Of a DNA stretch of 64,000 nucleotides, positions 43,854 to 64,000 are shown in pieces (the stretch's first letter is position 1; every line of letters begins with the position of its first letter). A program made the position numbers and the translations under genes. The DNA lies in contig JAEWYT010000121.1 in NCBI GenBank assembly GCA_023458595.1, forward strand, positions 2,983-66,982, written 5' to 3'. The notes below the pieces were generated by a model. It saw nothing but the letters and a program-made list of their open reading frames with translations. It ran no database searches and had not been told where the DNA came from. The DNA comes from Pseudomonadota bacterium (lineage in GTDB: Bacteria; Pseudomonadota; Alphaproteobacteria; Rhizobiales; Tepidamorphaceae).

Positions 43854-43868
43854 GCCCGGGGCGACGGC

Positions 43869-44114: not shown

Positions 44115-44280
44115 CCGGACGCAGGCAGGAAGCCGTGCTTCCGTCCCGCCCGCCGCCGGTAATGCCGTGTCGTCGGCGCGGTGCATGTCGAAAACGGGGC
44201 GGCTGCGACCTGTCGCATCCTTGCGCCGGCCGGCGGGAACTTCCATCCTGCCGGTTCGGCGACGAGCTGAGGGTGCGCTG

Positions 44281-45527: not shown

Positions 45528-45537
45528 GAGAGTAGAC

Positions 45538-45786
45538 ATGTGTCTCGCCCTGCCGGCCCTGGTCGTGTCGATCGACGAAGCCAGCGAGATGGCGACGGTC
45601 GCGCTCGCGGGCGTCCGCAAGGCGATTTCCATCGCCCTGCTCGACGACGTCGCGATCGGCGACTACGTGCTCGTCCACGTCGGCTACGCGCTGCACAAGA
45701 TCAGCCCGGAGGAGGCCGACCGCACGCTGAAGCTGATGGAAGAGGCCGGGATCATCGAGGAAGAGCTCGAGGAGATCCGGTCATGA
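45538..45786 (+). CDS. hypC: Hydrogenase assembly chaperone HypC
   Basis: 82 aa with the invariant MCLALP N-terminus. Confidence 0.9.
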   Translation: MCLALPALVVSIDEASEMATVALAGVRKAISIALLDDVAIGDYVLVHVGYALHKISPEEADRTLKLMEEAGIIEEELEEIRS

Positions 45787-47980: not shown

Positions 47981-48175
47981 TGCGCGTCCTTTTCCGCACC
48001 CACGGTTTCAGCGCGCCCGCCTCGTCGCCCGGTCTCGAAGCCCGTCTCGCCGGGAAGCGCGACCGCCGCGCGACCGACGAACGGGTGAAGCCGCTTCGCG
48101 AATGCCGGGCCGGGATGCAGGAAGGCTGCGTCATGAGCGGGCCTGCGACCGTCCTCGCCGAGCGTTGAGGCGTCG

Positions 48176-50506
48176 ATGGCAGGCGTCGGATTCCGGGTAC
48201 GCGGACTCGTGCAGGGCGTCGGCTTTCGCCCGCATGTCTGGCGTCTCGCCCATGAACTCGGGCTGACTGGCGAGGTCCTGAACGACGGCGAGGGCGTGCT
48301 GATCTCGGCCTACGGCGATCCGGCCGCGCTCGCCGGATTCCGCGAAAGGCTGTCGAGAGAGGCGCCGCCGCTGTCGCGCATCGACGTCATCGAGGAAAGC
48401 GTGCTTGCCGGAACGCCGCCCGGCACGGATTTCGTCATCGTCGAGAGCCGGCCGGGCCGGGTGCGCACCGGCATCGTCCCGGATGCGGCGACCTGCCCGC
48501 AGTGCCTCGCCGACATCCGCGATCCCGGCAATCGCCGCTACCGCTATCCCTTCGCCAACTGCACCCATTGCGGCCCGCGCCTGTCGATCGTCCGGGCGAT
48601 CCCCTACGACCGCGCGAACACCAGCATGGCCGCCTTCCCGATGTGCCCGGCCTGCGCCGCCGAGTACGCCGATCCCGCCGACCGCCGCTTCCATGCCCAG
48701 CCGAACGCCTGCCCCGCGTGCGGCCCGGGACTGTGGCTGGAAGGTCCGGCGGGCGAGCTGGCCGAAGGCGAGACGGTCGAGGGCGATCCGATCGAAAGGG
48801 CCCGCGCCCTGATCCTCGACGGCGCCATCGTCGCGGTGAAGGGCATCGGCGGCTTCCACCTCGCCTGCGACGCCGCCGACGGCGATGCGGTCGAGCGCCT
48901 GCGTGCGCGCAAGCACCGCTACGCCAAGCCGTTCGCCCTGATGGCCCGCGACCTGGCGACGGTCGCGGAGTACGCGGACCTCTCGGATGCGGAAGCCGGC
49001 ATGCTGGCGAGCGCGGCCGCCCCCATCGTGGTGCTCGAAACCAGGCGGGACCGGACGCAATTGCCGGCCGCCGTCGCACCCGGCCGGCGCAGCCTCGGCT
49101 TCATGCTGCCCTATACGCCGCTGCACCATCTGCTGATGGACGGACTGGACCGGCCGGTCGTGCTCACCTCCGGCAACCGCAGCGACGAGCCGCAGGCGAT
49201 CGGCAACGACGAGGCCCGGGAGCGCCTGGGGCCGATCGCGGACTGGTGGCTCATGCACGACCGCGACATCGTCAACCGTCTCGACGATTCCGTGGTCCGG
49301 GTCATGGCCGGCGCACCGACGGTGCTGCGGGGCGGACGCGGGCTGGCACCGGCGACATTTCCGCTGCCCGCGGGTTTCGCGGGGGCTGCGACCGGGCTGG
49401 GGATGGGCGGCGAGCTGAAGGCGACTTTTTGCCTTCTCAAGGAGGGCGAGGCGATCCTTTCCCAGCACATCGGCGATCTGGAGGAAGCGAGCGTCCACGC
49501 CGACTATCGCCGGAACCTCGAGCTCTATCGCCAGATATTCGATTTCGATCCGGCAGTCGTCGCTGTCGATATGCATCCCGACTACCTGTCGGCCCAATGG
49601 GGCCGGAATCTCGTGGAAAACGAGGGTTTGCGCCTCGAGGAGGTCCAGCACCACCACGCCCATATCGCGTCCTGCATGGCCGAGCACGGCCTCGATCTCG
49701 ACCATCCGCCGGTGCTCGGAATCGTCCTGGACGGCCTCGGCCACGGGGCCGACGGAACGGTGTGGGGCGGCGAATTCCTCCTGGCCGACTACCGCGGTTT
49801 CGACCGGCTCGCCCATTTCATGCCCGCCCCGCTGATCGGCGGCACGAAGGCGATGAAGCAGCCCTGGCGAAACGCCTACGCGTTCCTCGATACCTGCCTC
49901 GGCTGGCAGGAAGTCCTTGAAGATCATGCCGAATTGCCGATCGTCGCGTTGGTGCGCACGAAGTCGCCCGCGATCCTCCGCCGGATGATCGAGCAGGGGC
50001 TCAACACGCCGATGGCGGTCTCCGCCGGCCGGCTTTTCGATGCCGCCGCCGCGATCCTCGGCATCTGCCCGGACTCGATTGCCTACGAGGGCCAGGCGGC
50101 GATCGAGATGGAGGCGCTGGCGGCCGTCGCCGACGACCATCGCGGCTACGGCCATGCGATCCGGCAGGGGGTTCCGGCCGTCATCGACTGGACGCCGCTA
50201 TGGCGAGAGATGCTCGCCGACCTGTCCGGCGGGACGCCCCGGCAAACGGTCGCCGCACGCTTCCACAACGGCGTCGCGGCCGCCGTCGCCGGGATGGCGA
50301 AGGCGCTCGCGGCCGGCTGCGATTTCGAGAAAATCGTGCTCTCCGGCGGCGTTTTCCAGAACCGGCTGCTGCTCGAAGGCGTCGCGGCGCGGCTTCGTTC
50401 GGCAGGACTCCAGGTGCTGATCCACCGGCAGGTCCCGCCGAACGATGGCGGCATCGCCCTCGGCCAGGCGGTCATCGCCGCGGCCCGGTCACTCGGAGCG
50501 GGCTGA
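48176..50506 (+). CDS. hypF: Carbamoyltransferase HypF
   Basis: 776 aa with an acylphosphatase domain (VRGLVQGVGFRPHVWRLA), two CxxC zinc-finger pairs (CPQC...CTHCGPR; CPAC...CPACGP), a YrdC-like domain and a Kae1-like domain. Confidence 0.92.
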   Translation: MAGVGFRVRGLVQGVGFRPHVWRLAHELGLTGEVLNDGEGVLISAYGDPAALAGFRERLSREAPPLSRIDVIEESVLAGTPPGTDFVIVESRPGRVRTGIVPDAATCPQCLADIRDPGNRRYRYPFANCTHCGPRLSIVRAIPYDRANTSMAAFPMCPACAAEYADPADRRFHAQPNACPACGPGLWLEGPAGELAEGETVEGDPIERARALILDGAIVAVKGIGGFHLACDAADGDAVERLRARKHRYAKPFALMARDLATVAEYADLSDAEAGMLASAAAPIVVLETRRDRTQLPAAVAPGRRSLGFMLPYTPLHHLLMDGLDRPVVLTSGNRSDEPQAIGNDEARERLGPIADWWLMHDRDIVNRLDDSVVRVMAGAPTVLRGGRGLAPATFPLPAGFAGAATGLGMGGELKATFCLLKEGEAILSQHIGDLEEASVHADYRRNLELYRQIFDFDPAVVAVDMHPDYLSAQWGRNLVENEGLRLEEVQHHHAHIASCMAEHGLDLDHPPVLGIVLDGLGHGADGTVWGGEFLLADYRGFDRLAHFMPAPLIGGTKAMKQPWRNAYAFLDTCLGWQEVLEDHAELPIVALVRTKSPAILRRMIEQGLNTPMAVSAGRLFDAAAAILGICPDSIAYEGQAAIEMEALAAVADDHRGYGHAIRQGVPAVIDWTPLWREMLADLSGGTPRQTVAARFHNGVAAAVAGMAKALAAGCDFEKIVLSGGVFQNRLLLEGVAARLRSAGLQVLIHRQVPPNDGGIALGQAVIAAARSLGAG

Positions 50507-50847
50507 ACGTCCCGATTGTGCCGCCGGCCCGAGAAGAGACGGCGACGAGGCGTTCTCGCACTCCCGTAGCGATCGTCTCCGCGTCCGGCCCCGCCGCCGA
50601 GGATCGGCCCTTCGTCATCGGCCTGAGGGCCCGCACGTAGCGGGTGCGCGGACCTCTGCCGCGCGGGACATCCGAGGAACTTCGGGACGATCCGTTCGAA
50701 TACAAACAGTCGGCAAAAAAACAGACCGTTTGATATACGCCCGTACTCGCGAACGTGCGGACGCCCGCGGTATGGTCCACCATTCAACGACAGGCCCCCG
50801 ACCGCTCGCAGCGGATCGGAAGGCCGAGAATGGGAGGAACGGACGTT

Positions 50848-52101
50848 ATGAAATCCAGCTTGTTCTGTGCGGTTGCAGCCACCGCTCTTCTGATGGCCGC
50901 CGGCACCAACGCCGCCGAACCGCTCAAGATCGGCGTGACGGCGACGCTAGAAGGTACGTACACCGTGCTCGGGGAGGACGGCATGCGCGGCTTCGAGGTC
51001 GCGCTGCGGGAGCACAACAAGATGGCCGGTGGCCGGCCGCTCGAGATCATCGTCGCCTCGACGGACGCGAGCCCCGACTCCGCGGTGCGCGCGGTCCGCA
51101 AGCTCGTCGAGCAGGACAAGGTCGACGTCGTCGTCTCGCCGCTGTCCGGCGACGAGGGCATCGCGGTCAAGAACTACGCCAAGACGCAGCCGCAGATGAC
51201 CTTCATCAACGGCGGGTCGGGCGCGCAGGAGACGACCTTCGTCGATCCGTCGGAAAACTTCTTCCGCTTCAACATGGACGGCGCCCAGTGGTCCGCCGGC
51301 CTTGGCAACTATATCTACAACAACAAGGGCTGGAAGAAGATTGCCACGATCGGCGAGGACTACTCCTTCGTCTACACGCAGGTATTCGGCCTCGCGGTCG
51401 AGTACTGCAGCGCCGGCGGCGAGATTTCGGAGCGGTTCTGGGTCCCGCTCGGCACCAAGGACTTCTCGTCGATCATCGCCGCGCTGCCTGACGACGTCGA
51501 CGCCATCTATCTCGGCCTTGGCGGCGGCGACGCCGTCAACTTCCTGAACCAGTACGCCCAGGCCGGCGGCGACGCCCACTTCCTCGGCGGCTCGATCATG
51601 GTCGACCAGACCGTGCTGTCGTCGAAGGGCAAGGCCAAGGAACTCCTGCTCGGCACCCCGGCCGCGTCCGGCCAGGCCGACACCTGGGACAATCCGAAGT
51701 GGCAGGCCTTCGTGAAGGCCTATCAGGACGCGTTCCCGCCGGAGAAGCGCTTCGCCGGCCCCTCGCTGCTCGCCACCAACTACTATGACGCTGCGACCGC
51801 CGTGTTCAACGCGCTCGACCAGGTCAACGGCGACCTGAGCGACGGTCAGGCGAAGTTCCGCGACGCACTGAAGAACATGGTTCTCGACGCGCCGAACGGC
51901 GAGATCAAGCTCGACGAGAACCGCCAGGCGATCGGCACCAACTTCGTCACCGAAGTGATCGCCGACAAGGACGGCAACCTGGTCTCCAAGGTCGTGGACG
52001 TGGTCCCGAACGTGAACCAGACGCTCGGTATCCCGCTGGACGAGTTCAAGAAAATCGGCCTGCCGAGCCGCGACGTTCCGGAGTGCAAGAAGTACAAGTA
52101 A
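50848..52101 (+). CDS. Liv-type (branched-chain amino acid family) ABC transporter substrate-binding protein
   Basis: 417 aa with a GGGAGGA RBS, a signal peptide (ATALLMAAGTNAAEP) and a type I PBP pattern (LKIGVTATLEGTYTVLGEDG). Confidence 0.85.
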   Translation: MKSSLFCAVAATALLMAAGTNAAEPLKIGVTATLEGTYTVLGEDGMRGFEVALREHNKMAGGRPLEIIVASTDASPDSAVRAVRKLVEQDKVDVVVSPLSGDEGIAVKNYAKTQPQMTFINGGSGAQETTFVDPSENFFRFNMDGAQWSAGLGNYIYNNKGWKKIATIGEDYSFVYTQVFGLAVEYCSAGGEISERFWVPLGTKDFSSIIAALPDDVDAIYLGLGGGDAVNFLNQYAQAGGDAHFLGGSIMVDQTVLSSKGKAKELLLGTPAASGQADTWDNPKWQAFVKAYQDAFPPEKRFAGPSLLATNYYDAATAVFNALDQVNGDLSDGQAKFRDALKNMVLDAPNGEIKLDENRQAIGTNFVTEVIADKDGNLVSKVVDVVPNVNQTLGIPLDEFKKIGLPSRDVPECKKYK

Positions 52102-52291
52102 GGCACTCGCCGGAATGGACGTGGCGGCGTGCCGCGAGGCCGCCGCAGGAGTGACGAGGGTCCCGTGCCGTGGGGGCGGCGCGGGGCTTTCGCGTGCCTT
52201 GCCCGCCACAACGTATACGAAATCCGTAGCCAGCCACCAAAAGCTGGACCATACTCAAAAGAAAAAGCCGAAAATCCAAAGGGAGGAGCCG

Positions 52292-53122
52292 TTGAGCACA
52301 GCAATTTCTGTGTACCACGGCCACTTCGGCCGTGCGACGCTTTACGCGCTTGATCGCGCGATGATCAAGCACGCCCACCGGGAAGGTCACCTGACCTTCT
52401 GGGTCCAGGGCGGGCTGTCGACCATAGCGATCAAGGACGTCCCCTGCGTGCTATCACCCGAGACGGGGGCGGCGGTGAATTCGTGGGAGCTTCACTCCTA
52501 CGATCCGCACGAATGTGAGGTCCGCCAGCACTGTCTGGTCCTCTACATCAGGCCGGAGTGGTTCTTGAACTTCAGCCGGTCCACGTGCGGCGCGTTGAAA
52601 TTCGGCCGCCCCGAGGTCGAGATGACACCGCTGATCGTCCGGCTGGTCGCCCATGTCGTCCACCTGCTGACCGACCCGCACGGCAGCGATCTCCTGGACG
52701 GCTATCTCTACGAGCTGACGTCGGCCTGTTTCGAGCAGACCCACACCTGGGTGCCGGGCGCCCAGGAGGTCGGAGACGAGAGCCGCATCAACGACTTCCG
52801 CGTCCGCAAGTCGATCCGGCTGATGACCGAGAATGTCGGCCAGATCATGGGTCTCGACGACGTCGCCAGCGAGTCGGGCCTGTCGCGCCCGCACTTCTTC
52901 AAGCTGTTCCGCAGCCAGACCGGCGTCACGCCCAAGCTGTTCTGGAACACGATCCGCATGGAGCGGGCGCTGGCCGAGCTGGCGGAGTCGCCGAAGTCGA
53001 TCACCGACATAAGCCTCGACCTCGGTTTTTCCTCGCAGTCGAGCTTCACGCGGTTCTTCGTGCTGAACACGGGGCTCGCGCCGACCGAGTACCGACGGGT
53101 CGCGCACGTGTTGCACTCCTGA
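52292..53122 (+). CDS. AraC family transcriptional regulator
   Basis: About 276 aa with a TTG start preceded by GGGAGGAG. The C-terminal double HTH is present (ESGLSRPHFFKLFRSQTGVTPKLFW ... DLGFSSQSSFTRFFVLNTGLAPTEYRR). Confidence 0.8.
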   Translation: MSTAISVYHGHFGRATLYALDRAMIKHAHREGHLTFWVQGGLSTIAIKDVPCVLSPETGAAVNSWELHSYDPHECEVRQHCLVLYIRPEWFLNFSRSTCGALKFGRPEVEMTPLIVRLVAHVVHLLTDPHGSDLLDGYLYELTSACFEQTHTWVPGAQEVGDESRINDFRVRKSIRLMTENVGQIMGLDDVASESGLSRPHFFKLFRSQTGVTPKLFWNTIRMERALAELAESPKSITDISLDLGFSSQSSFTRFFVLNTGLAPTEYRRVAHVLHS

Positions 53123-53390
53123 CGCTGCCCGCGTCCGGACGGTCTTTCGAAAAGAGACTGTTTGGCATGCGCCGATCGCGGGCGGTGTCTAAGTTTGAAC
53201 AACGGGGGAGGGCCCCTGCGGGAAAACCGCCGCAAGGAGACTGGCGTGCGAGTGCGCCAGCCGACGAAGAACGGCGAACGGGGAAAGGAGACGCGGTCAT
53301 GGGCGCGCGTACGGCGATAGCTTCCGGCACACGTCGGTCGGGCGCCGGTCGCGCGCACGCACGGCCGGCCCGTTGTTTCCGGAGAACTGG

Positions 53391-54401
53391 ATGAGCCGGT
53401 TCTTCGAGCGCCACCCGATCTGGTCGATCGTCATCGTGCTCGCCGCCGCCCTGGTGCTGTGGCTGATCATCGCGCCTTGGCCCGAATGGCTCGAGACACT
53501 GATCGATCGCAAGAAGGTCTTCGTCAACGCGGTGTTCAACGGGGTGACGCTCGGCGCGCTCTATTTCCTCGTCGCCTCGGGCTTCACCCTGATCTTCGGC
53601 CTGATGCGCAACGTCAACCTGGCGCATGGCTCTCTCTATCTGTTCGGCGGCTATCTCGGCTACACGGTCACGGCGGCGACCGGCAGCTGGTATCTCGCCT
53701 TCGTCGTCGCCTTCGCCGCCATGGCCCTCTTCGGCATCGTTCTGCAGGTCGGCGTGTTCCGCCGCATGGAAGGCGAGGAGCTGCGCCAGACGCTGGTGAC
53801 GATCGGCATCTCGATCGTCCTCGCCGACGTGATGCTTTGGATCTGGGGCGGCGACTTCTACCAGGTCGAGCCGCCCGGCTGGCTGTTCGGCGCGGTCGAT
53901 CTGCCGATCATCACCGCGGTGAAGAGCGACGGCACGGCGGTCTACATGAAGTATCCGGCGGTGCGAATATTCATCCTGATCGCCTCGATCATCGTCGGGG
54001 TGCTGATGTGGCTCGCGCTCAACCGCACCAGGATCGGCATGATGATCCGCGCCGGCGTCGACGACCGCGACATGCTGTCGGCGACTGGCGTGCCCATTCA
54101 GCTCGTGTTCGTCGCGGTCTTCGCGGTCGGCGCGGGGCTTGCCGGCGTCGCCGGCGTCGTCGGCGGTACGTTCCAGGCTCTGGCGCCCGGCGTCGACACG
54201 CGATTCCTGCTCGCTTCCCTCGTCGTCGTCATCGTCGGCGGGATGGGTTCGATTCCAGGCGCCGCGATCGGCGCCGTTCTCATCGGCCTCTCCGAGCAGC
54301 TCGGCTCGGTCTACGTCCCGACCTACGCCGTCGTGCTGACGTTTCTTATCATGGTGATCGTGCTGGCTTTCCGCCCGCAGGGACTCCTTGGCAGGAGGTG
54401 A
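53391..54401 (+). CDS. LivH-type ABC transporter permease
   Basis: About 336-aa polytopic ORF with LivH motifs (GVTLGALYFLVASGFTLIFGLMRNVNLAHG). An alternative ATG lies at 53373. Confidence 0.88.
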   Translation: MSRFFERHPIWSIVIVLAAALVLWLIIAPWPEWLETLIDRKKVFVNAVFNGVTLGALYFLVASGFTLIFGLMRNVNLAHGSLYLFGGYLGYTVTAATGSWYLAFVVAFAAMALFGIVLQVGVFRRMEGEELRQTLVTIGISIVLADVMLWIWGGDFYQVEPPGWLFGAVDLPIITAVKSDGTAVYMKYPAVRIFILIASIIVGVLMWLALNRTRIGMMIRAGVDDRDMLSATGVPIQLVFVAVFAVGAGLAGVAGVVGGTFQALAPGVDTRFLLASLVVVIVGGMGSIPGAAIGAVLIGLSEQLGSVYVPTYAVVLTFLIMVIVLAFRPQGLLGRR

Positions 54402-54404
54402 GCG

Positions 54405-55508
54405 ATGGCGGTGCTCGATCAGGACCCGGCAGGCAGTCGAACGGGCGTCCGCGCGTCTGATGGCGCCTCGCTCCCCGTCTGGCTGCGCGGCATCGACCCG
54501 GGCGTCTGGCTCGTCGGCCTGTTTCTCCTGTTCGTGCCGGCATTCACCAACGACTTCATCCAGTTCCAGATCTTCGGCTGGAGTTTCGTGCTCGGCATGA
54601 TCGCGCTGAGCCTGATGTTCCTTGCGGGCTACGGCGGCATGGTGTCGCTCGTGCAGATGACCGTCGCCTGCGTCGCCGGCTACATGACCGCGATCTTCGG
54701 CCATAGCGCCTTCGAGTCGATCAGCTTCTTCTGGCCGCTGTGGATCGCGGTGCCGATCGCGATCCTCGTCGCCGTCGTCTTCGGCACCCTCACCGGCGCG
54801 CTCGCCGTGCGCACCACCGGCATCTACACGATCATGATCACGCTCGCGATCGCGGCGGCCTTCTACTATTTCGGCGAGCAGAACTACTCGATCCTGAACG
54901 GCCATCAGGGGTTCAACAGCGTGGCGGCGCCGATCGTGTTCGGCATCGATTTCCACGACTCGACGCCCTTCTACTACCTCTCGCTCTGCCTGGCCGCGCT
55001 CAGCTATTTCGTGGTGCTCTATATCTCGCGCTCGCCCTTCGGCCTGGCCCTCCAGGGTATCCGCGACAATCCGCGCCGCATGGCGGCAATCGGCTTCAAC
55101 GTCACGGCCCACCGCATCGCGGCATACGCGTTCGCCGCTTTCATCGCCGCGATCGCCGGTATCCTGCTCACCTGGCAGAACGGTCAGATCTCGCCGTTCA
55201 CGGCCGGCATCGGCCCGGTCATCGACATCCTGGTGATCGCCGTCATCGGCGGCCTCGGCCATCCGATAGGCCCGTTCATCGGCGCGCTCATCTACGTGGT
55301 GCTGCGCACGTTCGCGATCGACATTCTCCAGAACGTCGGCCTGGATCCGTCCCGCTTCAACCTGCTCGTCGGCTTCGGTTTCCTGGTGATCGTGTTCTGG
55401 TCGCCGGACGGCGTGCTCGGCCTGTGGACGCGCTGGCGCGACCGGTCGCGCGACCGCGACCCGCTGACCGGTGCCCAGAACACGGGCGACCGGCGGGAGG
55501 GCCCGTGA
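54405..55508 (+). CDS. LivM-type ABC transporter permease
   Basis: 367-aa polytopic ORF (LAGYGGMVSLVQMTV), starting 3 nt after the LivH-like stop. Confidence 0.88.
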   Translation: MAVLDQDPAGSRTGVRASDGASLPVWLRGIDPGVWLVGLFLLFVPAFTNDFIQFQIFGWSFVLGMIALSLMFLAGYGGMVSLVQMTVACVAGYMTAIFGHSAFESISFFWPLWIAVPIAILVAVVFGTLTGALAVRTTGIYTIMITLAIAAAFYYFGEQNYSILNGHQGFNSVAAPIVFGIDFHDSTPFYYLSLCLAALSYFVVLYISRSPFGLALQGIRDNPRRMAAIGFNVTAHRIAAYAFAAFIAAIAGILLTWQNGQISPFTAGIGPVIDILVIAVIGGLGHPIGPFIGALIYVVLRTFAIDILQNVGLDPSRFNLLVGFGFLVIVFWSPDGVLGLWTRWRDRSRDRDPLTGAQNTGDRREGP

Positions 55509-56296
55509 TGGCGGAAAGCGTCGCCCAGCGCCTCTCCACGGCCGGAGCCGCCAACGCGCTGGAGCTGCGCGGCGTCTCGCGCATGTTCGGCGCGCTCGCG
55601 GCGATGACCGACGTCACGATGACCGTGCGCCCCGGCGAGCGCCGCGCCGTGCTCGGCTCGAACGGCGCCGGCAAGACGACGCTCTTCAACTGCATCACCG
55701 GCGACTTCCTGCCGACGTCCGGCACGATCCGGCTGTTCGGCGAGGACGTGACGGCCTTTCCCGCCTACGAGCGCATCCGCCGGGGGCTCAGGCGCACCTA
55801 CCAGATATCGCTTCTGTTCGGCGGCCTGAGCGTCCTCGACAACATCTATCTCGCCTGCCGGGGCGTCTCGCGCGGACGGTTCTCGCTGCTGAGGCCACGC
55901 CGCAACGACGCGTTGGTCAACGCGGCGGAGGAACTCCTCGACGCCGTCCACCTGACCTCGGCGCGCGACACGCTGGTCTCGCAGCTGTCCTACGGCCAGC
56001 AGCGCCAGCTCGAGATCGCGCTCGCGCTCGCCGGCGCGCCGCGCTTCATCCTGTTCGATGAACCCGCCGCCGGCCTGTCGCCGACCGAGCGGCGTGAACT
56101 GATCGCCATCCTCTCGGGCCTGCCGGAGCACATCGGCTTCATCATCATCGAGCACGACATGGACGTGGCGCTGCGCGTCGCCGAGAGCGTGACGATGATG
56201 CACAACGGGCGCATCTTCAAGGAAGGCACGCCGGCGGAAATCGAGGACGATCCGGAAGTGCAGGCGCTCTATCTCGGAGGCGGCCACCATGGCTGA
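55508..56296 (+). CDS. LivG-type ABC transporter ATP-binding protein
   Basis: 262 aa with Walker A GSNGAGKTT, signature LSYGQQRQLEIA and Walker B ILFDEP. The ATG overlaps the upstream TGA. Confidence 0.9.
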   Translation: MAESVAQRLSTAGAANALELRGVSRMFGALAAMTDVTMTVRPGERRAVLGSNGAGKTTLFNCITGDFLPTSGTIRLFGEDVTAFPAYERIRRGLRRTYQISLLFGGLSVLDNIYLACRGVSRGRFSLLRPRRNDALVNAAEELLDAVHLTSARDTLVSQLSYGQQRQLEIALALAGAPRFILFDEPAAGLSPTERRELIAILSGLPEHIGFIIIEHDMDVALRVAESVTMMHNGRIFKEGTPAEIEDDPEVQALYLGGGHHG

Positions 56297-58496
56297 GCGC
56301 GAGCGCACCGGCACGCCCGTCCTCGATATCCGGGGCCTCAACGTCTACTACGGGGCCTCCCACGCGCTGCAGGGCGTCGACCTGCAGCTCAAGGGCGGGG
56401 CGCTCGCCGTCGTCGGCCGCAACGGCATGGGCAAGACGACGCTCTGCAAGGCCATCATGGGGCTCGTGCCGATCGCCTCGGGCTCGATCCGCTTCGCCGG
56501 CCAGGAGCTCGCCGGCCGGTCGCCCGCCGATATCGCCCGCCTCGGCATCGGCTACGTGCCGCAAGGGCGACGACTGTGGCGCTCGCTGACGGTCGACGAA
56601 CATCTGCGCATGGTCTCGACCGGCCATGCCGGCTCCTGGACGATCGAACGCATCTACTCGACGTTCCCGAGGCTCGCCGAGCGCCGCACCAACGGCGGCG
56701 GCCAGCTTTCGGGCGGCGAGCAGCAAATGCTGGCGATCGCCCGCGCGCTGCTTCTCAACCCGCAGCTCCTCGTCATGGACGAGCCGACCGAGGGTCTGGC
56801 GCCCGTCATCGTCGCCCAGGTCGAGGAACTGCTCATGAACCTCGCCGAGACGGGTGACGTCAACGTCCTCCTGATCGAGCAGAACATCGGCGTCGCCACC
56901 GAAGTCGCGCCGCAGGTCGCGATCATGGTCAACGGCCGTATCAACCGGCTCATCGAGTCCGGCCAGCTCGCCGGCGACCGCGACATGCAGCAGCGCCTCC
57001 TCGGCGTCGGCCGCCATGCCCACGACGAGACGCCGGATACGGAAACGCCCGCGAGGGCCGCGGCGGACCGGCGGGCGGCATCGGAGCACGGGCCGGTCCG
57101 TATCTACATGTCCAACCCCAAGCCGCCGACGCGCTGGTCGCAGCCGGTGTCCGTGCGCCAGATCGAGCAGTCGGCGCGTATCGTCTCCGCGCCGCGCATC
57201 CCCGGCGCGGAGGCCGGCATGCCGCACGCCGAGCTGCGGCCGCTCGCCTCGCCCGGCGAGAACATCGTCCTCGTCGCCGGTACGCTCGACACCAAGGGCG
57301 CGGAGCTGCGCTTCATCCGCGACGTCATCCGCGAGCACGGTCTTCCCGTTCGCATGGTCGATCTTTCGACGTCGGGCCGCCATTCCGGCGCGGAGATCCC
57401 GGCGCATCAGATCGCCGCCTTCCATCCGCGTGGCGCCAGCGGCGTGTTCACCAACGATCGCGGCGAGTCGGTTGCCGGCATGACGCTCGCCTTCGAGCGC
57501 TGGGTGGCGCGGCAGAGCGGCATCGCCGGCATCATCTCGGCCGGCGGCTCGGGGGGTACGGCGATCGTCGCGCCCGCCATGCGCGCGCTGCCCATAGGCA
57601 CGCCCAAGCTGATCGTCTCCACCGTCGCCTCGGGCGACGTGCGCCGCTACGTCGGCCCCTCGGACATCACCATGATGTACTCGGTCGCCGATGTTCAGGG
57701 CCTGAACTCGATCACCCGCCTTGTGCTGCGCAACGCCGCCGCGGCGATGGCCGGAATGGTCCGCGACCGGCGCGAGCATGCGCGCAGGGAGTCCGGAGCC
57801 GTCAAGCCCGCCGTCGGCCTCACCATGTTCGGCGTGACGACACCCTGTGTGCGTCAGGTCGCCGACGCGCTGGAGGGGGACTACGACTGCCTCGTCTTCC
57901 ACGCGACCGGCATCGGCGGCCAGTCGATGGAGAAGCTCGTCGACGGCGGCCAGATCCGCGCGGTGGTCGACATCACCACGACCGAGATCTGCGATATGGT
58001 CGCAGGCGGCATCTTCCCGGCGACCGCCGATCGCTTCGGCGCCATCATCCGCACCCGGATCCCGTACATCGGCTCCTGCGGCGCCCTCGACATGGTCAAT
58101 TTCGGTGCGCCCGACACGGTGCCGGAGAAATACCGCCACCGCACCTTCTATCACCACAACCCCCAGATCACGCTGATGCGCACGACGCCGGAGGAGAACG
58201 CGGAGATGGGCCGCTGGATCGGCGCGCGGCTCAACGAGATGGAAGGTCCGGTCCGCTTCTTCCTGCCCGAGGGCGGCGTCTCGCAGCTCGATCAGCCGGG
58301 CCAGCCCTTCCACGATCCCGCAGCCGACCGCGCGCTCTTCGCCGCGCTCGAGCAGACCGTGCGTCAGACCGCGACCCGGCAGCTGATACGGCTGCCCGGC
58401 AACATCAACGACCCCGCCTTTTCCGCAGAGCTCGTCGCCGCCTTCCGGGCGCTCCACGGCTCGACGCGGCCGAAACCGAGACGGGCGAGAAGGTGA
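56289..58496 (+). CDS. Fusion protein: LivF-type ABC ATPase (N-terminal ~240 aa) plus Tm-1-like UPF0261 ATP-binding domain (C-terminal ~410 aa)
   Basis: 735-aa continuous frame. The N-terminal part has [24 protein letters not shown] and LLVMDEPT. After a linker of ~90 aa, the C-terminal part has UPF0261 features ([60 protein letters not shown]). Confidence 0.8.
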
Positions 58497-58504
58497 CCGC
58501 GCGA

Positions 58505-59341
58505 ATGCCGATCGAACGAAAGAACATCCTCGAGAAGTTCCGCGCCATGATCGCGAGCGGCGAGCCGATCATCGGCGGCGGCGCGGGGACGGGCCTTTCC
58601 GCGAAGTGCGAGGAGGCCGGCGGCATCGATCTGATCGTGATCTACAATTCCGGGCGTTACCGGATGGCCGGTCGAGGTTCGCTGGCCGGACTTCTGGCCT
58701 ACGGCGACGCCAACCAGATCGTTGTCGAGATGGCCTCCGAGGTACTGCCCGTCGTGAAGCGCACGCCGGTACTCGCCGGCGTCAACGGCACCGACCCGTT
58801 CCGACTGATGGACGTCTTCCTCGACGAACTCAAGCGCATCGGCTTCTCGGGGGTGCAGAACTTCCCGACGGTCGGCCTCTTCGACGGCACGTTCCGCTCA
58901 AATCTGGAAGAGACCGGCATGTCCTATGGCCTCGAGGTCGACATGATCGGCAAGGCGCGCGCCAAGAACATGCTGACGACGCCTTACGTCTTCAACGAGG
59001 CTGACGCGGCGGCGATGGCGAAGGCCGGCGCCGACATCGTCGTCTGCCACCTGGGCCTCACCACCGGCGGCTCGATCGGCGCGGAGACCGCGCTCAAGCT
59101 CAAGGACTGCCCGGCCAAGGTCGACGCGTGGGCGGAGGCCGCCCTCAAGGTCAACAAGGATGTGATCGTGCTCGTCCACGGCGGCCCCGTCGCCATGCCG
59201 GACGACGCGCGCTTCATCCTCAAGGAAACGCGCAACTGTCACGGCTTCTACGGCGCCTCCTCGATGGAGCGCCTGCCGACGGAGGTCGCGCTGACGGAAC
59301 AAACGCGCCGGTTCAAGGAAATCGGCCGCAAGCATGGGTAA
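58505..59341 (+). CDS. Phosphoenolpyruvate hydrolase-like TIM-barrel protein (partner domain of Tm-1-type proteins)
   Basis: 278 aa with [33 protein letters not shown] and [12 protein letters not shown] motifs. It lies directly downstream of the UPF0261-containing gene. Confidence 0.75.
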
Positions 59342-59391: not shown

Positions 59392-62300
59392 ATGACTGGA
59401 CAGATCATTGGCCAGATCATCCTTTGGCTGATCGTCGCCGTAGTCGCGATCGCCATCATCTACTGGGTGATGAACAGGCTCTACCGCCGCTCCACCAAGG
59501 AGGTCGCGTTCGTCAGGACCGGTTTCCTCGGCGAGAAGGTCGTCATCGACGGCGGCGCGTTCGTCTGGCCCATCATCCACGACATCACGCCGGTGAACAT
59601 GAACACCGTGCCGCTGGAGGTCATCCGCGCCAGGGAGGAGGCGTTGATCACCCGCGACCGTATGCGCGTCGACGTCGAATCCGAGTTCTACATCCGGGTG
59701 AAGCCGACGAAGGAGGCCGTCTCCCGTGCCGCCGCCACCCTCGGTCGCCGCACCCTCGACACCGAGTACTTGAACAACCTCCTGTCGTCGAAGTTCGAGT
59801 CGGCCCTGCGCGCGGTCGCCGCCGACATGACCATGGCCGAGATGCACGAGCAGCGCGGCGCCTATGTCGCCCGCGTCAAGGAAGCCGCCCTCGAGGACAT
59901 GGCGACCAACGGTCTCGAGCTCGAGTCGGTGGCGATCATGGACATCGACCAGACGAGCCTCGAGTTCTTCAATCCTTCCAACCGCTTCGACGCCGAAGGT
60001 CTGACGGCCCTCATCAAGGACATCGAGGACCGCCGCAAGCTGCGCAACGACATCGAGCAGGACTCGATGATCCTGATCCGCGCGCGCAATCTCGAGGCCG
60101 AGAAGCAGGCCCTCGCGATCGAGCGGGAGAGCGAGGAAGCCCGGCTCGAGCAGGAACGCGACGTCGAGTTCCGCCGCGCCCAGCAGCGCGCCGAACTGGC
60201 TCGTGAACGTGCCGAGCGCGAGCGCGAGGCCGAGGAGGCGCAGATCGGCGCCCGCGAGGTCGTCGAGCGCGCCCGCATCGCCACCGACCAGTCCGTCACC
60301 TCGACGCGCATTCAGTCGGAGCGCGAGATCCGCCAGCGCGAGATCGAGCGCCAGCAGGCGATCGACTCCGCCGAGATCAAGTCGCGCGAGGAGATCGAGA
60401 AGGCCCGCATCCTGCAGGAGAGGGCGGTGCAGGAAGCCCGTATCGTCAACGAGCAGGAGACGCAGTCGCGCGACATCGCCCGCCGGCGCGCTATCGAGGA
60501 GGCCGAGATCGCCGCCCGCGAGGCGACCGAGCGTGCCCGTATCGAGCAGGAACGCGCCGTCCAGGAAGCCCGTATCGTCAACGAGCAGGAGACGCAGGCC
60601 CGCGAGATCATCCGCCGCCGCACGATCGAGGAGGCGGAGATCACTGCCCGGGAGGCGATCGAGCGCGCCCGCATCGAACAGGAACGGGCGATCCAGGAAT
60701 CCCGCATCGCCAACGAGCAGGAGACGCAGGCCCGCGAGATCACCCGCCGGCGCGTGCTCGAGGAGGCCGAAATCGCCGCTCGCGAATCGACCGAGCGGGC
60801 CCGCATCGAGCAGCAGCGGATCATCGAGGAAGCCCGTATCGCACAGGAACTGTCGGTCACCGACGCGCGTATCGCGAGCGAGGAGGAGACGCGCCGGCGC
60901 GAGATCGAGCGCAACCGGGCGATCGAGGCCGCCGAGATCGCCGCGCGCGAGGCGACCGAGAAGCTCAGGATCGCCGAGGCCGCCGGTGTCAACGAGGAGC
61001 GCATCTCGACAGACCGGCACATCCGCGAGTTGGAGATCGAGCGCCAGCGGGTCCTGGAAGAGGCCGAGATCGCCGCGACCCAGGCGACCGAAGCCGCCCG
61101 TATCGCCCGCGAGAAGCGGATCTCCGCCGAGCGTATCGCCTACGAGCAGGACGTGCGCGAACGCGAGATCGCCCGCGCCCGCGCGGTGGACACGGCAGAG
61201 ATCGCCGCGCGCCAGACTGTCGAGGCACAGCGGATCGAGGTTGACGCGAAGATCGATCAGGAGCGCATCGCCAAGCGGGAGGCGACCGTGCTCGCCGAGA
61301 CGGCGTCGGTGCTGAAGACCGAGGCCGCCGGCATCGAGCGGCAGAAGACGATAGAGATCGAGCGTATCGCGGCCGGCACCGAGACGCGCACCCGCGAGAT
61401 CGAGCGCAACGAGGTCATCGAGAGCCAGGAAGTCGCCTCCCGGCGCACCGTCGACCAGGTCCGCATCGAGAAGGAGCTCGAGACCTCGCGCGACAAGGTC
61501 CGGCGCGACGAGGAACTGCGCAATCTGGAGATCGCCCGCAACAAGGTGCTGGACGAGGCGGCGATCGCCGCCGAGCAGGCCGTGGAGGCGGCGCGCATCT
61601 CGCAGAAGAAGTCGCTGGACGCCGAGCGCATCGCCGCCGAGCAGGACGTGCGGCAGCGCGAGATCGCCCGCGAGGAAGCCGTCGAGACGAGCGACCTGCT
61701 GCGCCGCGACGCCGTCGAGCGCCAGCGCATCGGCGTCGAACTGGGCCTCGAGGAGGAGCGCATCACCTCGCAGAAGCAGCGCGAGGTTCTCGACATCAAT
61801 CGCAAGAGGGAGGTCGAGGAAGCCGACGAGAGCCGTATCATCGAGATCGCGGCCATCAAGGGCCAGCGCGCGGAAGCCGACGCAAGGCTGCGGCGCACCG
61901 AGATCGCGGCCAAGCGCGACGTCGAGACGACCGACGTACAGCGCGAGCAGGCGCTCGACGCGGCGAAGCTCGAGCGCAGGCGGTCGATCGAGCAGCTCGA
62001 GATCGCCCGCGTGCAGGCCCTGCGCGAAGCCGAGATCGCCTCGCACGAGGACATCGAGCGCGCCCGCATCGCCTCCGAGCGCGGCCTCGACGACGCCCGC
62101 ATCGGCCACGAGACCGCGCGCCGTCGCCTCGAGGTGCAGCGCGAGCGCGACGTCGAGACCGCGAAGATGGAGAAGGCGATCGCGCTCTACCAGAAATCTC
62201 TCGAGGAATCCGCCGCGCAGATCGAGGCCGATCTTGCCCGCGCACGCGCCGCAGAAGCCGAGGAGCAGGTCAAGACGACCCGCGAGACCGAGGAGGCCAA

Positions 62301-62889
62301 CCGCCGCAAGACGATCGATGTGCTCATGGCGCAGAAGGCCGCCGAGCAGGAGAAGATCGCGGCCGCCGCCGAAAAGGTTCGCCGTGCGGTCGAGGCCGAG
62401 GCCCAGCGTCTCATCAACGAGGCGGAGAACATCCTCACCGACGGCGCCCGCGCCTCGCTGTTCAAGCGCAAGCTGCTCGACCGCGTGGAGGGTATCGTCG
62501 CCGCCTCCGTCAAGCCCCTGGAGAAGATCAACGACATCCGCATCGTGCAGATGGACGGTCTCGGCCAGAACGGCGGCGGGATCGGCGGCAGCCCGACCGA
62601 CGAGGTGATCAACTCGGCGCTGCGCTACCGCGTGCAGGCGCCGCTGATCGACAGCCTGCTGTCGGAGATGGGTATCGAGGGCGCGAACCTGGCGAAACAG
62701 GCCGGCCTGATCCGAGAGGCCTCGGACATGCAGCGCATCGCCAAGGAGGCCGGACGGCCATCGGGGAGCGGCGGTGGCGGTGAAGGCGGCGGCTCGGGCG
62801 GCGGATCCGGCGGCGGGGGCAGCGGCGGATCCGGCGGCGGCTCGAAGTCCGGCGGTTCCCGGTCACGCCGCGGCCAGAAGGGCGAATGA
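59392..62889 (+). CDS. Giant flotillin/SPFH (band-7) family membrane-scaffold protein with an expanded hendecad-based coiled-coil repeat region and a Gly/Ser tail
   Basis: 1165 aa. I prefer the ATG at 59392 with a GGGAGGAAAG RBS. It has an N-terminal TM helix (IIGQIILWLIVAVVAIAIIYWV) and an SPFH domain (VAFVRTGFLGEKVVIDGGAFVWPIIHDITPVNMNTVPLEV). A very long Glu/Arg/Ala/Ile-rich repeat region follows, then a flotillin-type C-terminal region (LLDRVEGIVAASVKPLEKINDIRIV). Confidence 0.8.
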   Translation: MTGQIIGQIILWLIVAVVAIAIIYWVMNRLYRRSTKEVAFVRTGFLGEKVVIDGGAFVWPIIHDITPVNMNTVPLEVIRAREEALITRDRMRVDVESEFYIRVKPTKEAVSRAAATLGRRTLDTEYLNNLLSSKFESALRAVAADMTMAEMHEQRGAYVARVKEAALEDMATNGLELESVAIMDIDQTSLEFFNPSNRFDAEGLTALIKDIEDRRKLRNDIEQDSMILIRARNLEAEKQALAIERESEEARLEQERDVEFRRAQQRAELARERAEREREAEEAQIGAREVVERARIATDQSVTSTRIQSEREIRQREIERQQAIDSAEIKSREEIEKARILQERAVQEARIVNEQETQSRDIARRRAIEEAEIAAREATERARIEQERAVQEARIVNEQETQAREIIRRRTIEEAEITAREAIERARIEQERAIQESRIANEQETQAREITRRRVLEEAEIAARESTERARIEQQRIIEEARIAQELSVTDARIASEEETRRREIERNRAIEAAEIAAREATEKLRIAEAAGVNEERISTDRHIRELEIERQRVLEEAEIAATQATEAARIAREKRISAERIAYEQDVREREIARARAVDTAEIAARQTVEAQRIEVDAKIDQERIAKREATVLAETASVLKTEAAGIERQKTIEIERIAAGTETRTREIERNEVIESQEVASRRTVDQVRIEKELETSRDKVRRDEELRNLEIARNKVLDEAAIAAEQAVEAARISQKKSLDAERIAAEQDVRQREIAREEAVETSDLLRRDAVERQRIGVELGLEEERITSQKQREVLDINRKREVEEADESRIIEIAAIKGQRAEADARLRRTEIAAKRDVETTDVQREQALDAAKLERRRSIEQLEIARVQALREAEIASHEDIERARIASERGLDDARIGHETARRRLEVQRERDVETAKMEKAIALYQKSLEESAAQIEADLARARAAEAEEQVKTTRETEEANRRKTIDVLMAQKAAEQEKIAAAAEKVRRAVEAEAQRLINEAENILTDGARASLFKRKLLDRVEGIVAASVKPLEKINDIRIVQMDGLGQNGGGIGGSPTDEVINSALRYRVQAPLIDSLLSEMGIEGANLAKQAGLIREASDMQRIAKEAGRPSGSGGGGEGGGSGGGSGGGGSGGSGGGSKSGGSRSRRGQKGE
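60307..62170 (+). repeat. In-frame tandem repeat array inside the flotillin gene: 132-nt (44-codon) units, about 14 copies of decaying similarity
   Basis: Successive units start at 60307, 60439, 60571 and 60703, an exact 132-nt spacing (CGTATCGTCAACGAGCAGGAGACGCAG...). Each unit splits into four 11-residue sub-repeats. One extra 33-nt (11-aa) insertion lies at 60835-60867. Confidence 0.8.
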
Positions 62890-62892
62890 GCG

Positions 62893-63330
62893 ATGGCCCG
62901 CGTCTTCATATCGAGCGTGATCTCCGCCCCCGTCGTCCGTGTCTGGGAGCGCGTGCGTGACTTCAACGCCCTGCCGCGCTGGCATCCGGCGATCCGCGAA
63001 AGCCGCATCGAGAACGGCGAGCCGTCCGACAAGGTCGGCTGCGTGCGCGACTTCCGCCTGCAGAACGGGGACCGGATCCGGGAGAGGCTGCTCGGTCTCT
63101 CCGACTACGACTACTTCTGCACGTACTCGATCCTCGAAAGCCCGATGCCGCTCACGAACTACGTGGCGACGCTGCGGCTTACTCCCGTCACCGACGGCGA
63201 CCGGACCTTCGCGGAATGGTCGGCCGAGTTCGACTGCGCGCCGGAGGCGGCGAACGACCTCGTCGGCGGCATCGGCATGAATGTCTTTCAGGCCGGCTTC
63301 GACAGCCTCAAGAGGCATTTCGGAGGCTGA
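62893..63330 (+). CDS. SRPBCC (START/Bet v1/polyketide cyclase-like) family protein, copy A
   Basis: 145 aa (VISAPVVRVWERVRDFNALPRWHPAI...PSDKVGCVRDF...LTPVTDGDRTFAEW). Starts 3 nt after the flotillin stop. Confidence 0.75.
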   Translation: MARVFISSVISAPVVRVWERVRDFNALPRWHPAIRESRIENGEPSDKVGCVRDFRLQNGDRIRERLLGLSDYDYFCTYSILESPMPLTNYVATLRLTPVTDGDRTFAEWSAEFDCAPEAANDLVGGIGMNVFQAGFDSLKRHFGG

Positions 63331-63336
63331 CGGGCG

Positions 63337-63798
63337 ATGGTGAAGGTGGTCAAGAGCACGATCATGGACGCCCCCGTCGAGGCGGTATGGGACGTGCTGC
63401 GCGATTTCAACGGCCACGACCAGTGGCATCCGGCTGTTGCCGACAGCGCCATCGAGCGGGGCCTGCCGTCCGACAAGGTCGGCTGCGTGCGCCGGTTCCA
63501 TCTCGCCGACGGCTCGGAGCTGCGCGAGCAGTTGCTGACGCTCTCCGACGCGGACATGGCCTTCTCCTACTGCCTGCTCGACACGCCGGTGCCGCTCCTG
63601 AACTACGTCGCCCACGTTCGCCTCATTCCCGTGACCGACGGCGACCGCACCTTCTGGCACTGGGAGTCGCGCTTCGACACGCCCGAGGGCCGCGAGGAGG
63701 AGCTCGCCGGCATGGTCGGCGAACAGATCTACGAGGGCGGCTTCGCCGCCGTTCGCGAGTTCATGGGGCTCGGCCCCGCCGATACGGGAGAAACCTGA
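63337..63798 (+). CDS. SRPBCC family protein, copy B (tandem paralogue)
   Basis: 153 aa, roughly half identical to copy A by eye. The two copies share an identical 27-nt block, CCGTCCGACAAGGTCGGCTGCGTGCGC (63023-63049 and 63464-63490). Confidence 0.75.
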   Translation: MVKVVKSTIMDAPVEAVWDVLRDFNGHDQWHPAVADSAIERGLPSDKVGCVRRFHLADGSELREQLLTLSDADMAFSYCLLDTPVPLLNYVAHVRLIPVTDGDRTFWHWESRFDTPEGREEELAGMVGEQIYEGGFAAVREFMGLGPADTGET

Positions 63799-64000
63799 TG
63801 CCGGTGCGCGTCGAAACCTTTTCGGCGGTCGACCAGGCCGCCGGAGCGCTGGCCTCCAACGCGTCGGCGCGCATGTTCGGCGGCGGTACGCTGCTGATGC
63901 GCGCCGTCAATGAGGCCGACCAGTCCTTCGACACGCTGATCCGCGTGACCGATCCGGCGCTCAGGGAGATCCGTGTCGAGGGCGACGCGGTCGTCGTCGG
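63798..64000 (+). CDS. N-terminal part of a second molybdenum-hydroxylase FAD-binding (CoxM/XdhB-like) subunit; continues beyond the window
   Basis: The ATG overlaps the upstream TGA (TGATG). My own translation is MPVRVETFSAVDQAAGALASNASARMFGGGTLLMRAVNE..., with the GGGT-LL FAD-binding (PCMH) signature. The frame is open to the window end. Confidence 0.6.
   Translation, partial: MPVRVETFSAVDQAAGALASNASARMFGGGTLLMRAVNEADQSFDTLIRVTDPALREIRVEGDAVVV

Follow-up and report, generated by a model that had tools for sequence, protein, structure and literature searches.

The closest described relatives of the protein studied here are the YqiK/FloT-type flotillins, including those of E. coli YqiJK and of a plasmid-borne pair in Paracoccus denitrificans PD1222, which combine a membrane helix, an SPFH domain, a long non-heptad helix and a Flot domain, and are usually paired with an NfeD protein. 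The clients of bacterial flotillins are largely open, and what is known derives mostly from knockouts with pleiotropic effects in Bacillus and Staphylococcus. At the structural level, SPFH cages have been solved for human flotillin-1/2 (9bq2, 9l3g), HflK/C-FtsH, prohibitin, stomatin and QmcA-YbbJ; in the solved flotillin, the helical wall is charge-rich and lacks heptads, and the C-terminal region forms an oligomerizing cap (PMC11260169). Here we analyzed a stretch of 64,000 nucleotides (nt) from a Tepidamorphaceae bacterium (Rhizobiales; contig JAEWYT010000121.1), hereafter the window, with all positions counted within it, that encodes a giant flotillin (59392..62889, + strand, 1165 amino acids) next to two SRPBCC proteins and a molybdenum (Mo) hydroxylase. 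This flotillin shares the YqiK/FloT domain layout, but it has no NfeD/OB-fold partner, is about twice as long owing to 44-residue repeats, and is coupled within a catabolic operon. We propose that it is a dedicated component of this operon rather than a general housekeeping scaffold.

The neighbors of the flotillin gene also have described counterparts. CoxG is an SRPBCC protein that acts as a quinone shuttle and membrane recruiter for an enzyme of the xanthine dehydrogenase (XDH) family, using a flexible linker and a C-terminal membrane helix (PMC12202499, PMC4240915). The 3-hydroxypyridine dehydrogenase HpdA of Ensifer adhaerens HP1 is a four-component enzyme that has a separate, essential SRPBCC subunit and needs a phosphoenolpyruvate (PEP)-utilizing protein and a pyruvate-phosphate dikinase (bioRxiv 10.1101/2020.01.08.898148). 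In the nicotinate dehydrogenase NdhL/NdhM of Eubacterium barkeri (PDB 3hrd), the large Mo subunit is split into two polypeptides. Finally, MarK, an ATP-dependent aromatic kinase, is the sole characterized member of the UPF0261 family (PMC12624787), and both MarK and plant Tm-1 show the order UPF0261 then PEP-hydrolase-like TIM barrel, which in Tm-1 is a single protein (PMC12624787; PMC5028733).

The open reading frame (ORF) map and the sequence confirmed every coordinate in an earlier note on this DNA, including the intergenic distances. The flotillin gene starts with an ATG preceded 8 nt upstream by GGAGG, and ends with a TGA stop (62887-62889). It is followed on the same strand, after a 3-nt gap, by SRPBCC1 (62893..63330, 145 amino acids; PF10604, 5.6e-25) and, after a further 6 nt, by its paralogue SRPBCC2 (63337..63798, 153 amino acids; PF10604, 6.9e-20). 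The SRPBCC2 stop codon overlaps by 1 nt (TGATG at 63796-63800) the start of a gene for the FAD-binding, CoxM-like subunit of an XDH-family Mo hydroxylase (63798..64000, +), of which only the N-terminus precedes the window end; this 67-residue fragment matches PF00941 at 7.6e-5, under the Pfam cut-off. The remaining Mo-hydroxylase genes, expected by the earlier note to lie downstream, were supplied by Logan contig L001, which matches the last 3288 nt of the window with 0 mismatches. In order, L001 encodes the full FAD subunit (FAD_binding_5 + CO_deh_flav_C, 5.7e-29), a subunit with two [2Fe-2S] clusters (Fer2 + Fer2_2), the two Mo subunits MoA and MoB, a CoxD-type AAA protein, a CoxE-type VWA protein and an Amidohydro_2 hydrolase; in related loci, Amidohydro_2 is followed by a metallo-beta-lactamase-fold hydrolase and an SMP-30/gluconolactonase::isochorismatase fusion.

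The unit also extends upstream, beyond what the earlier note had described. Its probable first gene encodes a Peripla_BP_6 periplasmic binding protein (50755..52101; PF13458, 1.1e-53) of a branched-chain/urea-type (HAAT) ATP-binding cassette (ABC) importer. Then follow, all on the + strand, an AraC-type transcription regulator (52115..53122; HTH_18/HTH_AraC), two BPD_transp_2 permeases (53373..54401, PF02653, 6.2e-33; 54405..55508, PF02653, 5.5e-37), a LivG-like ATPase (ATPase 1, 55508..56296; ABC_tran, BCA_ABC_TP_C), a second, UrtE-like ATPase fused to a UPF0261 domain (ATPase 2::UPF0261, 56289..58496; ABC_tran, UPF0261, UPF0261_C; NCBIfam PRK02399) and a PEP-hydrolase-like TIM barrel (58493..59341; PF09370, 2.9e-131). 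The second permease, the ATPase, the ATPase::UPF0261 fusion and the TIM-barrel genes are joined by overlaps of 1, 8 and 4 nt, the first of which is a TGATG where the ATG of ATPase 1 meets the permease stop, and 50 nt separate the TIM-barrel gene from the flotillin gene. No terminator-like site was found on the + strand between 54341 and 64000, which, together with the tight same-strand packing, argues for an operon, as had been suggested before. Taken together, the operon reaches upstream to approximately 50755 and comprises at least 17 genes that form one catabolic unit.

Absence of the neighborhood from other genomes had been named beforehand as an observation that should count against a functional link. 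To address this, we scanned one genome per species with SRPBCC1 as the anchor, which returned 80 loci, and the gene order was kept in all 80 as far as the contigs reach: ABC-UPF0261, TIM barrel, flotillin, SRPBCC1, SRPBCC2, FAD subunit, FeS subunit, MoA, MoB, CoxD, CoxE and Amidohydro_2. The reciprocal scan from the flotillin N-terminus gave no exceptions: in 72/72 loci the TIM barrel directly precedes the flotillin, and SRPBCC1 and the Mo-hydroxylase genes follow it in 68/68 and 64/64, respectively. In a set of 72 related loci, the median gaps were 3 nt (flotillin-SRPBCC1), 4 nt (SRPBCC1-SRPBCC2) and -1 nt (SRPBCC2-FAD), the last junction being 20 nt or shorter in 94% of loci, and the flotillin ORF was intact in 68 of the 72 (853-1263 amino acids). 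The SPFH domain is 71-90% identical across loci, and SRPBCC1 is 77-90% identical across several alphaproteobacterial orders. The loci occur in Hyphomicrobiales, Rhodobacterales, Acetobacterales, Rhodospirillales, Burkholderiales, a gammaproteobacterium and Desulfobacteraceae. The neighborhood is thus conserved.

The spacer between SRPBCC1 and SRPBCC2 is an insertion hotspot (L030 and L139, and also L033, L036, L040 and L052). In L030, it holds a repeat-flanked ORF for a DUF559/Vsr-like endonuclease on the opposite strand (L030:10446-11188), and in L139 a short element (L139:10475-10534) of which the read data contain multiple copies.

A scan seeded with more distant SRPBCC relatives split the loci into classes. 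After removal of duplicates, 192 distinct flotillin loci remained, of which 142 carry the Mo hydroxylase (class A) and 27 do not (class B); the others lie on contigs too short to class (15) or are cut by a contig end (8). Class A covers the taxa of the SRPBCC1 scan plus Bradyrhizobium and Geminicoccaceae, and class B was found in Azospirillum, Dongiaceae, Denitrobaculum, Pelagibius, Marivibrio, Burkholderiales and a gammaproteobacterium. The class B loci keep ABC-UPF0261, TIM barrel, flotillin, SRPBCC1 and SRPBCC2 without the genes for the Mo hydroxylase, CoxD and CoxE. Their SRPBCC2 is the N-terminal domain of a protein of ~490 amino acids, the rest of which is a zinc-dependent alcohol dehydrogenase (Zn-ADH) or quinone-oxidoreductase-type enzyme of the medium-chain dehydrogenase/reductase (MDR) superfamily (for example L104:10440-11909, L152:10443-11942 and L129:10444-11904), and the hydrolases encoded after this SRPBCC2::Zn-ADH fusion differ from those of class A. 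When a tandem SRPBCC-SRPBCC fusion served as the seed of another scan, a third group of ~20 loci emerged (class C). In these, an ABC transporter is accompanied by UPF0261 in unfused form, by the TIM barrel and by the SRPBCC-SRPBCC fusion, and both flotillin and the Mo enzyme are absent; the loci belong to Elioraea, Roseococcus, other Acetobacterales and an Arachnia. Among further SRPBCC relatives, some carry a fused Amidohydro_2 (P0210) or quinone-oxidoreductase-like domain, and others form SRPBCC-SRPBCC tandems (P0121-P0123).

These classes describe a layered module. Its core is UPF0261, the TIM barrel and two SRPBCC domains, which are present even without flotillin. A large clade gains flotillin, and the same clade has UPF0261 fused to the transporter ATPase; the ATPase::UPF0261 fusion was found in 122/123 flotillin-bearing loci versus 0/20 flotillin-less ones. 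In one branch of this clade, the four-subunit Mo hydroxylase is added together with CoxD and CoxE, and in another the MDR dehydrogenase is fused to SRPBCC2. Since the module is kept in the 27 class B loci and, with no flotillin either, in the ~20 class C loci, the Mo hydroxylase is a clade-specific add-on whose place on the flotillin/SRPBCC module can be taken by at least one other redox enzyme, and the stable partners of the flotillin are the transporter-fused UPF0261/TIM barrel and the SRPBCC pair. The earlier note had proposed a flotillin platform dedicated to the Mo hydroxylase. The association itself stands, as the giant form of the flotillin co-occurs with this enzyme; the exclusive dedication does not, given that flotillin and the SRPBCCs are together in 27 loci without a Mo enzyme.

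We next characterized the flotillin. Pfam recognizes Band_7 (PF01145, 1.4e-18) at residues 37-187 and Flot (PF15975, 2.2e-31; profile positions 2-124 of 124) at residues 980-1095. Along the + strand, the gene encodes an N-terminal hydrophobic helix (residues 2-34, 59395..59493; helical in an AlphaFold2 (AF2) model, with predicted local distance difference test (pLDDT) scores of 83-93) followed by RLYRRSTK, the SPFH/Band 7 domain (59500..59952), a helical wall rich in E, R, A and I that was delimited by autocorrelation and AF2 (residues ~201-1014, 59992..62433), the Flot domain (62329..62676) and a Gly/Ser-rich, low-complexity C-terminal tail (residues 1123-1165, 62758..62886; Tandem Repeats Finder reports 12- and 24-nt repeats at 62785-62845). 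Judged by the positive-inside rule, the residues that follow this N-terminal helix would place the bulk of the protein in the cytoplasm, together with the soluble products of the operon. The AF2 model of the 430-residue N-terminal fragment, built with an alignment, contains the membrane helix, the SPFH domain (alpha/beta, 73-187) and a continuous helix at 201-429 (pLDDT 76-91), and Foldseek matched it best to the human flotillin complexes 9l3g and 9bq2, followed by prohibitin, stomatin and HflK/C; the likeness to these cages is one of sequence and of the monomer model. In addition, the SPFH region is 54% identical to an E. coli plasmid flotillin. The window protein is therefore a true flotillin. 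As the earlier note had remarked, no NfeD-like product was found by Pfam among the operon genes.

The 43-residue tail of the flotillin begins GSGGGGEGGGSGGGSGGGG, and the tails of related flotillins vary in length and composition. When the flotillin N-terminus was used in a protein search, the best 120 matches were all shorter than 450 amino acids and the window protein was not among the matches listed, whereas the locus genes encode 850-1260 amino acids. The short database entries likely arose where short-read assembly or gene calling broke the genes at their tandem repeats.

The unusual length of the flotillin resides in its wall. Autocorrelation across residues ~250-980 peaks solely at multiples of 11 and most strongly at 44 (4 x 11), and the most recent repeats are still visible as 3.5 tandem copies of a 132-nt (44-residue) unit (60385..60841, +; 81% matches, Tandem Repeats Finder score 592). 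The 11-residue periodicity was present in all 67 orthologues examined and also in family members of ordinary length, including the NfeD-partnered 560-residue Paracoccus protein. This hendecad pattern fits the non-heptad, charged, right-handed helical barrel of the solved flotillin (PMC11260169). By BLASTP, the class A wall has ~500 extra residues (window residues ~330-860) relative to class B, and flotillin lengths fall into disjoint ranges, 853-1263 amino acids in class A (n=92) versus 520-764 in class B (n=22), although class A may be a single clade, so the difference is a pattern and not a statistical proof. The wall region is about five times the usual length; the whole chain of human flotillins has ~420 residues, with a wall far shorter than the ~800 residues here. 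Without an alignment, the AF2 model of the whole protein had a mean pLDDT of 52, so that its helical content alone is usable, and the wall helix breaks at positions of low confidence.

The SRPBCC pair had been described in the earlier note as CoxG-type, an identification that our searches overturned. The setting does resemble that of CoxG, with an SRPBCC fold beside an XDH-family enzyme and CoxD and CoxE maturation genes. However, both proteins are PYR/PYL-like members of PF10604, which they match along their entire length, and neither matched PF06240 (CoxG) at E <= 0.01. A profile of 36 orthologues searched against the PDB matched PYR/PYL, XoxI, lachrymatory-factor synthase, hydroxynitrile lyase and uncharacterized SRPBCCs, and no CoxG-named chain appeared among the 60 matches listed of 75 at E <= 10; the nearest structures were 7tmu, 2le1, 3f08, 3cnw (XoxI) and 3p51. 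Moreover, the two proteins stop right after the fold, at 145 and 153 residues, with no linker and no C-terminal membrane helix. The Pfam result, the PDB profile search and the missing membrane anchor together rule out CoxG; the CoxG label is an easy annotation error for such SRPBCCs, which is now corrected. SRPBCC1 and SRPBCC2 share 69 identical residues, and an alignment of both paralogues has 27 invariant columns, many of them polar (R22, D23, N25, H31, D46, C50, R52, R63, E64 and D71). The pairing of two such paralogues, and their persistence without the Mo enzyme, further distinguish them from CoxG.

The Mo enzyme has the complete set of XDH-family Mo-hydroxylase domains on L001, with the Mo subunit split into MoA (564 amino acids; Ald_Xan_dh_C + MoCoBD_1) and MoB (340 amino acids; MoCoBD_2). 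The nearest solved relative of MoA is E. barkeri NdhL (4.8e-58), in which the same domain boundary separates the two parts of the large subunit and the active-site loop is likewise of the xxAxRGFG type. The MoA loop reads ATAMRGFG, compared with AYACSFR in CoxL of M. smegmatis, and the Cu-binding cysteine of carbon monoxide (CO) dehydrogenase is absent. A form I Mo-Cu CO dehydrogenase, for which AYxCSFR is expected, was ruled out on this basis. In contrast to NdhL, MoA carries a C-terminal extension (L001:5700-6083), composed of a hypervariable, P/A/Q-rich disordered linker of ~70-200 residues and a conserved end, RFSS[ILV][SF]G[LFT]RRR. In 89 loci, synonymous codons vary freely at R, F, S, S and G, indicating that selection acts on the peptide itself; a nucleotide-level element at RFSSxSG was rejected because of this abundant synonymous variation. 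We also searched for the peptide on other operon proteins as a shared cargo tag, and found it on MoA alone, the other matches being spurious antisense ORFs. In encapsulin cargo proteins, a hypervariable linker leads into a short C-terminal loading peptide that is conserved. The MoA tail resembles this usual layout of docking or cargo-loading peptides, and we take it as a putative docking handle.

In the ATPase 2::UPF0261 fusion, the LivF/UrtE-like ATPase occupies residues 12-224 and UPF0261 residues 326-722 (PF06792, 2.9e-60; PF23189, 1e-90; PRK02399, 8.9e-184). By family, this domain is a putative kinase of the MarK/Tm-1 type. As in MarK and Tm-1, it is followed by the PEP-hydrolase-like TIM barrel, but here UPF0261 is fused to an ABC-transporter ATPase. 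The trio of Mo hydroxylase, SRPBCC and phosphotransfer proteins also recalls HpdA, compared here by its description; the differences are that HpdA3 has a signal peptide and a transmembrane segment, that the phosphotransfer families differ, and that no flotillin is reported for HpdA.

From this gene content, order and conservation, the fusions, the folds and the repeats, we propose how the products may associate, how they are oriented at the membrane, and on what they act. MarK as a kinase, the need of HpdA for SRPBCC and phosphotransfer proteins, and the Amidohydro_2 and isochorismatase-type hydrolases suggest a hydroxylated aromatic or N-heteroaromatic substrate. The importer would take up such a compound, and the transporter-tethered UPF0261/TIM-barrel pair would modify it at the membrane face, probably by phosphorylation. 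The SRPBCC pair would bind the product and pass it to the oxidoreductase. The flotillin, with its SPFH domain and wall in the cytoplasm, might assemble an SPFH ring or cage around the importer and retain the soluble enzymes in a membrane-attached metabolon, in which the compound is modified, bound and oxidized without diffusing off. In the Mo branch, the wall helix would have been lengthened by the 44-residue repeats, and the linker-borne MoA peptide (RFSS-x-S/F-G-x-RRR) could serve as the docking handle. HflK/C offers a precedent for an SPFH cage that holds a dedicated client enzyme, except that no protease is among the candidate clients in the present case, which comprise an ABC importer and catabolic enzymes. 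On balance, we lean towards this explanation, in which the flotillin is a pathway-dedicated SPFH scaffold around the ABC importer that holds the TIM barrel, the SRPBCC pair and the oxidoreductase at a membrane patch.

Several other explanations share part of this evidence. The model of the earlier note, in which CoxG-type SRPBCCs recruit the soluble Mo hydroxylase to a flotillin platform, and to which a transfer of its electrons to quinone might be added by analogy with CoxG, accounts well for the translational overlap of SRPBCC2 with the FAD-subunit gene, for the CoxD and CoxE homologues downstream, and for the presence of the Mo genes in all 64 testable flotillin-anchored loci, and it has a mechanistic parallel in the delivery of quinone by CoxG to an XDH-family enzyme (PMC12202499). 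The giant flotillin, too, occurs only with the Mo enzyme, and the quinone-oxidoreductase-like MDR domain fused to SRPBCC2 in class B leaves room for a role in carrying quinone or redox equivalents. What makes this model unlikely to us is that the SRPBCCs lack both the CoxG signature and the membrane anchor, and that the pair occurs in loci without the Mo enzyme, both with flotillin (class B) and without it (class C), which makes the pair older than, and independent of, the link to the hydroxylase. A different possibility is that the flotillin acts on the membrane part alone, assisting the assembly or stability of the ABC importer as FloA/FloT do in Firmicutes, with no relation to the soluble enzymes. 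The co-occurrence of flotillin with the ATPase::UPF0261 fusion, always after the transporter genes, agrees with this, and staphylococcal flotillin is reported to stabilize membrane-protein clients (PMC11222466). However, the flotillin gene lies between the TIM barrel and the SRPBCCs, not beside the permeases, it is translationally coupled to SRPBCC1, and the length of its product varies with the type of soluble enzyme encoded downstream, so we give a purely importer-directed role a slim chance. We consider it highly improbable that the flotillin is a passenger, that is, a general membrane organizer inherited within the operon with no pathway-specific function. The core does exist, and so can work, without flotillin, and a Martelella plasmid flotillin sits in an unrelated ABC/catabolic cluster; yet the position of the gene is kept with near-zero gaps in 192 loci from several orders and at least three Pseudomonadota classes (Alpha-, Beta- and Gammaproteobacteria), its SPFH domain is strongly conserved, and related bacteria such as Paracoccus PD1222 keep a canonical flotillin with an NfeD/OB-fold partner elsewhere in the genome.

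A more elaborate version of the cage would be a closed catabolic nanocompartment, ~100 nm tall, on the inner face of the membrane, into which the importer delivers its substrate, the MoA peptide loads the Mo hydroxylase, and in which the transporter-fused kinase domain and the SRPBCC pair work, with the repeat number setting the volume. The wall of the solved flotillin is free of holes and is thought to be impermeable even to small molecules, and HflK/C cages enclose FtsH (PMC11260169). In the present loci, the wall repeat is expanded only alongside the ~290-kDa Mo enzyme, the UPF0261 fusion would put the first enzyme at the membrane patch, and the MoA linker with its conserved end is laid out like an encapsulin cargo-loading tag. 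On the other hand, the peptide is carried by MoA alone and could instead dock on MoB, CoxD or CoxE. A wall helix of ~800 residues, if continuous, would span roughly 100 nm; to our knowledge, no cage with such a wall has been described, and the single-sequence model of the whole protein breaks the helix, albeit at low confidence. Class B flotillins of ordinary length, moreover, serve the same core without such cargo. The nanocompartment therefore also seems improbable, to about the same degree as the importer-directed role; if true, bacteria would have a first metabolic compartment with a protein wall and a membrane floor, and a bacterial flotillin its first defined client set.

For the dedicated scaffold that we favor, some observations also weigh on the other side. 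The scaffold role is argued from gene context and, by analogy, from the behavior of other SPFH proteins, not from contacts between the flotillin and the operon products. The class correlations, between flotillin length and the Mo enzyme and between flotillin and the ATPase fusion, may each go back to only one or two events in evolution, so neither the counts nor the Mann-Whitney p-value are independent evidence. The giant-flotillin locus L106 has a 461-residue MoA without the tail, and the last two arginines in the MoA peptide are accounted for largely by the Shine-Dalgarno sequence of MoB, since their codons mostly read AGG AGG. The invariant polar residues of the SRPBCCs would suit an enzyme as well as a carrier, and the role of the UPF0261/TIM-barrel pair could lie in regulation instead of catalysis. 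Evidence from transcripts is weak: contigs from a sludge run labeled RNA-Seq cross the UPF0261/TIM barrel, TIM barrel/flotillin and SRPBCC1/SRPBCC2 junctions, but the run type is a guess and the source may be DNA, and the runs matched to a Bradyrhizobium locus are 92-95% alike, of unsure kind, and uninformative on transcription.

All of the protein families in the operon are known; what is new is an NfeD-less flotillin fixed in a catabolic operon, with a wall expansion that correlates with its enzymatic partner. In the library of papers searched, none linked flotillin to a Mo hydroxylase, an SRPBCC protein or UPF0261. The locus thus supplies a flotillin fixed in one pathway together with a short list of candidate partners, and UPF0261, the TIM barrel and SRPBCC emerge as a widespread, uncharacterized module. 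The three classes amount to natural experiments, namely the core without flotillin, a normal-length flotillin with an SRPBCC-fused dehydrogenase, and a double-length flotillin with the Mo hydroxylase, and culturable carriers (Shinella, Bradyrhizobium, Hoeflea, Mesorhizobium and Jannaschia) make the questions of scaffolding, wall length and MoA docking testable.

A flotillin of normal length is encoded in the plasmid cluster of Martelella lutilitoris mentioned above (L083:8179-13076), where its SPFH domain is 55% identical and no NfeD is present. This ABC/catabolic cluster includes an attM lactonase and alcohol and succinate-semialdehyde dehydrogenases, and the flotillin gene adjoins a gene annotated as bacteriorhodopsin. 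Flotillins embedded in catabolic operons may be recurrent.

The window holds two further gene groups outside the operon. A second XDH-family enzyme is encoded on the + strand by an FAD subunit (40151-41128) and a large Mo subunit (~40992-43853), directly followed, on the same strand, by hypA (44104-44622), a CobW/HypB-like GTPase (44298-45527) and hypD (45540-46934), and then by hypF (48176-50506), which is preceded by a gene for a hypE-like AIRS protein (to 47980); none of the genes seen between them (40151-50506) encodes a hydrogenase. On the - strand, 30017-32221 encodes an unusual fusion of a HAAT-type ABC permease (BPD_transp_2) and a strictosidine-synthase-like/SMP-30 beta-propeller, in a divergent cluster that also contains a LysR regulator, an isochorismatase and an N-formylglutamate amidohydrolase.

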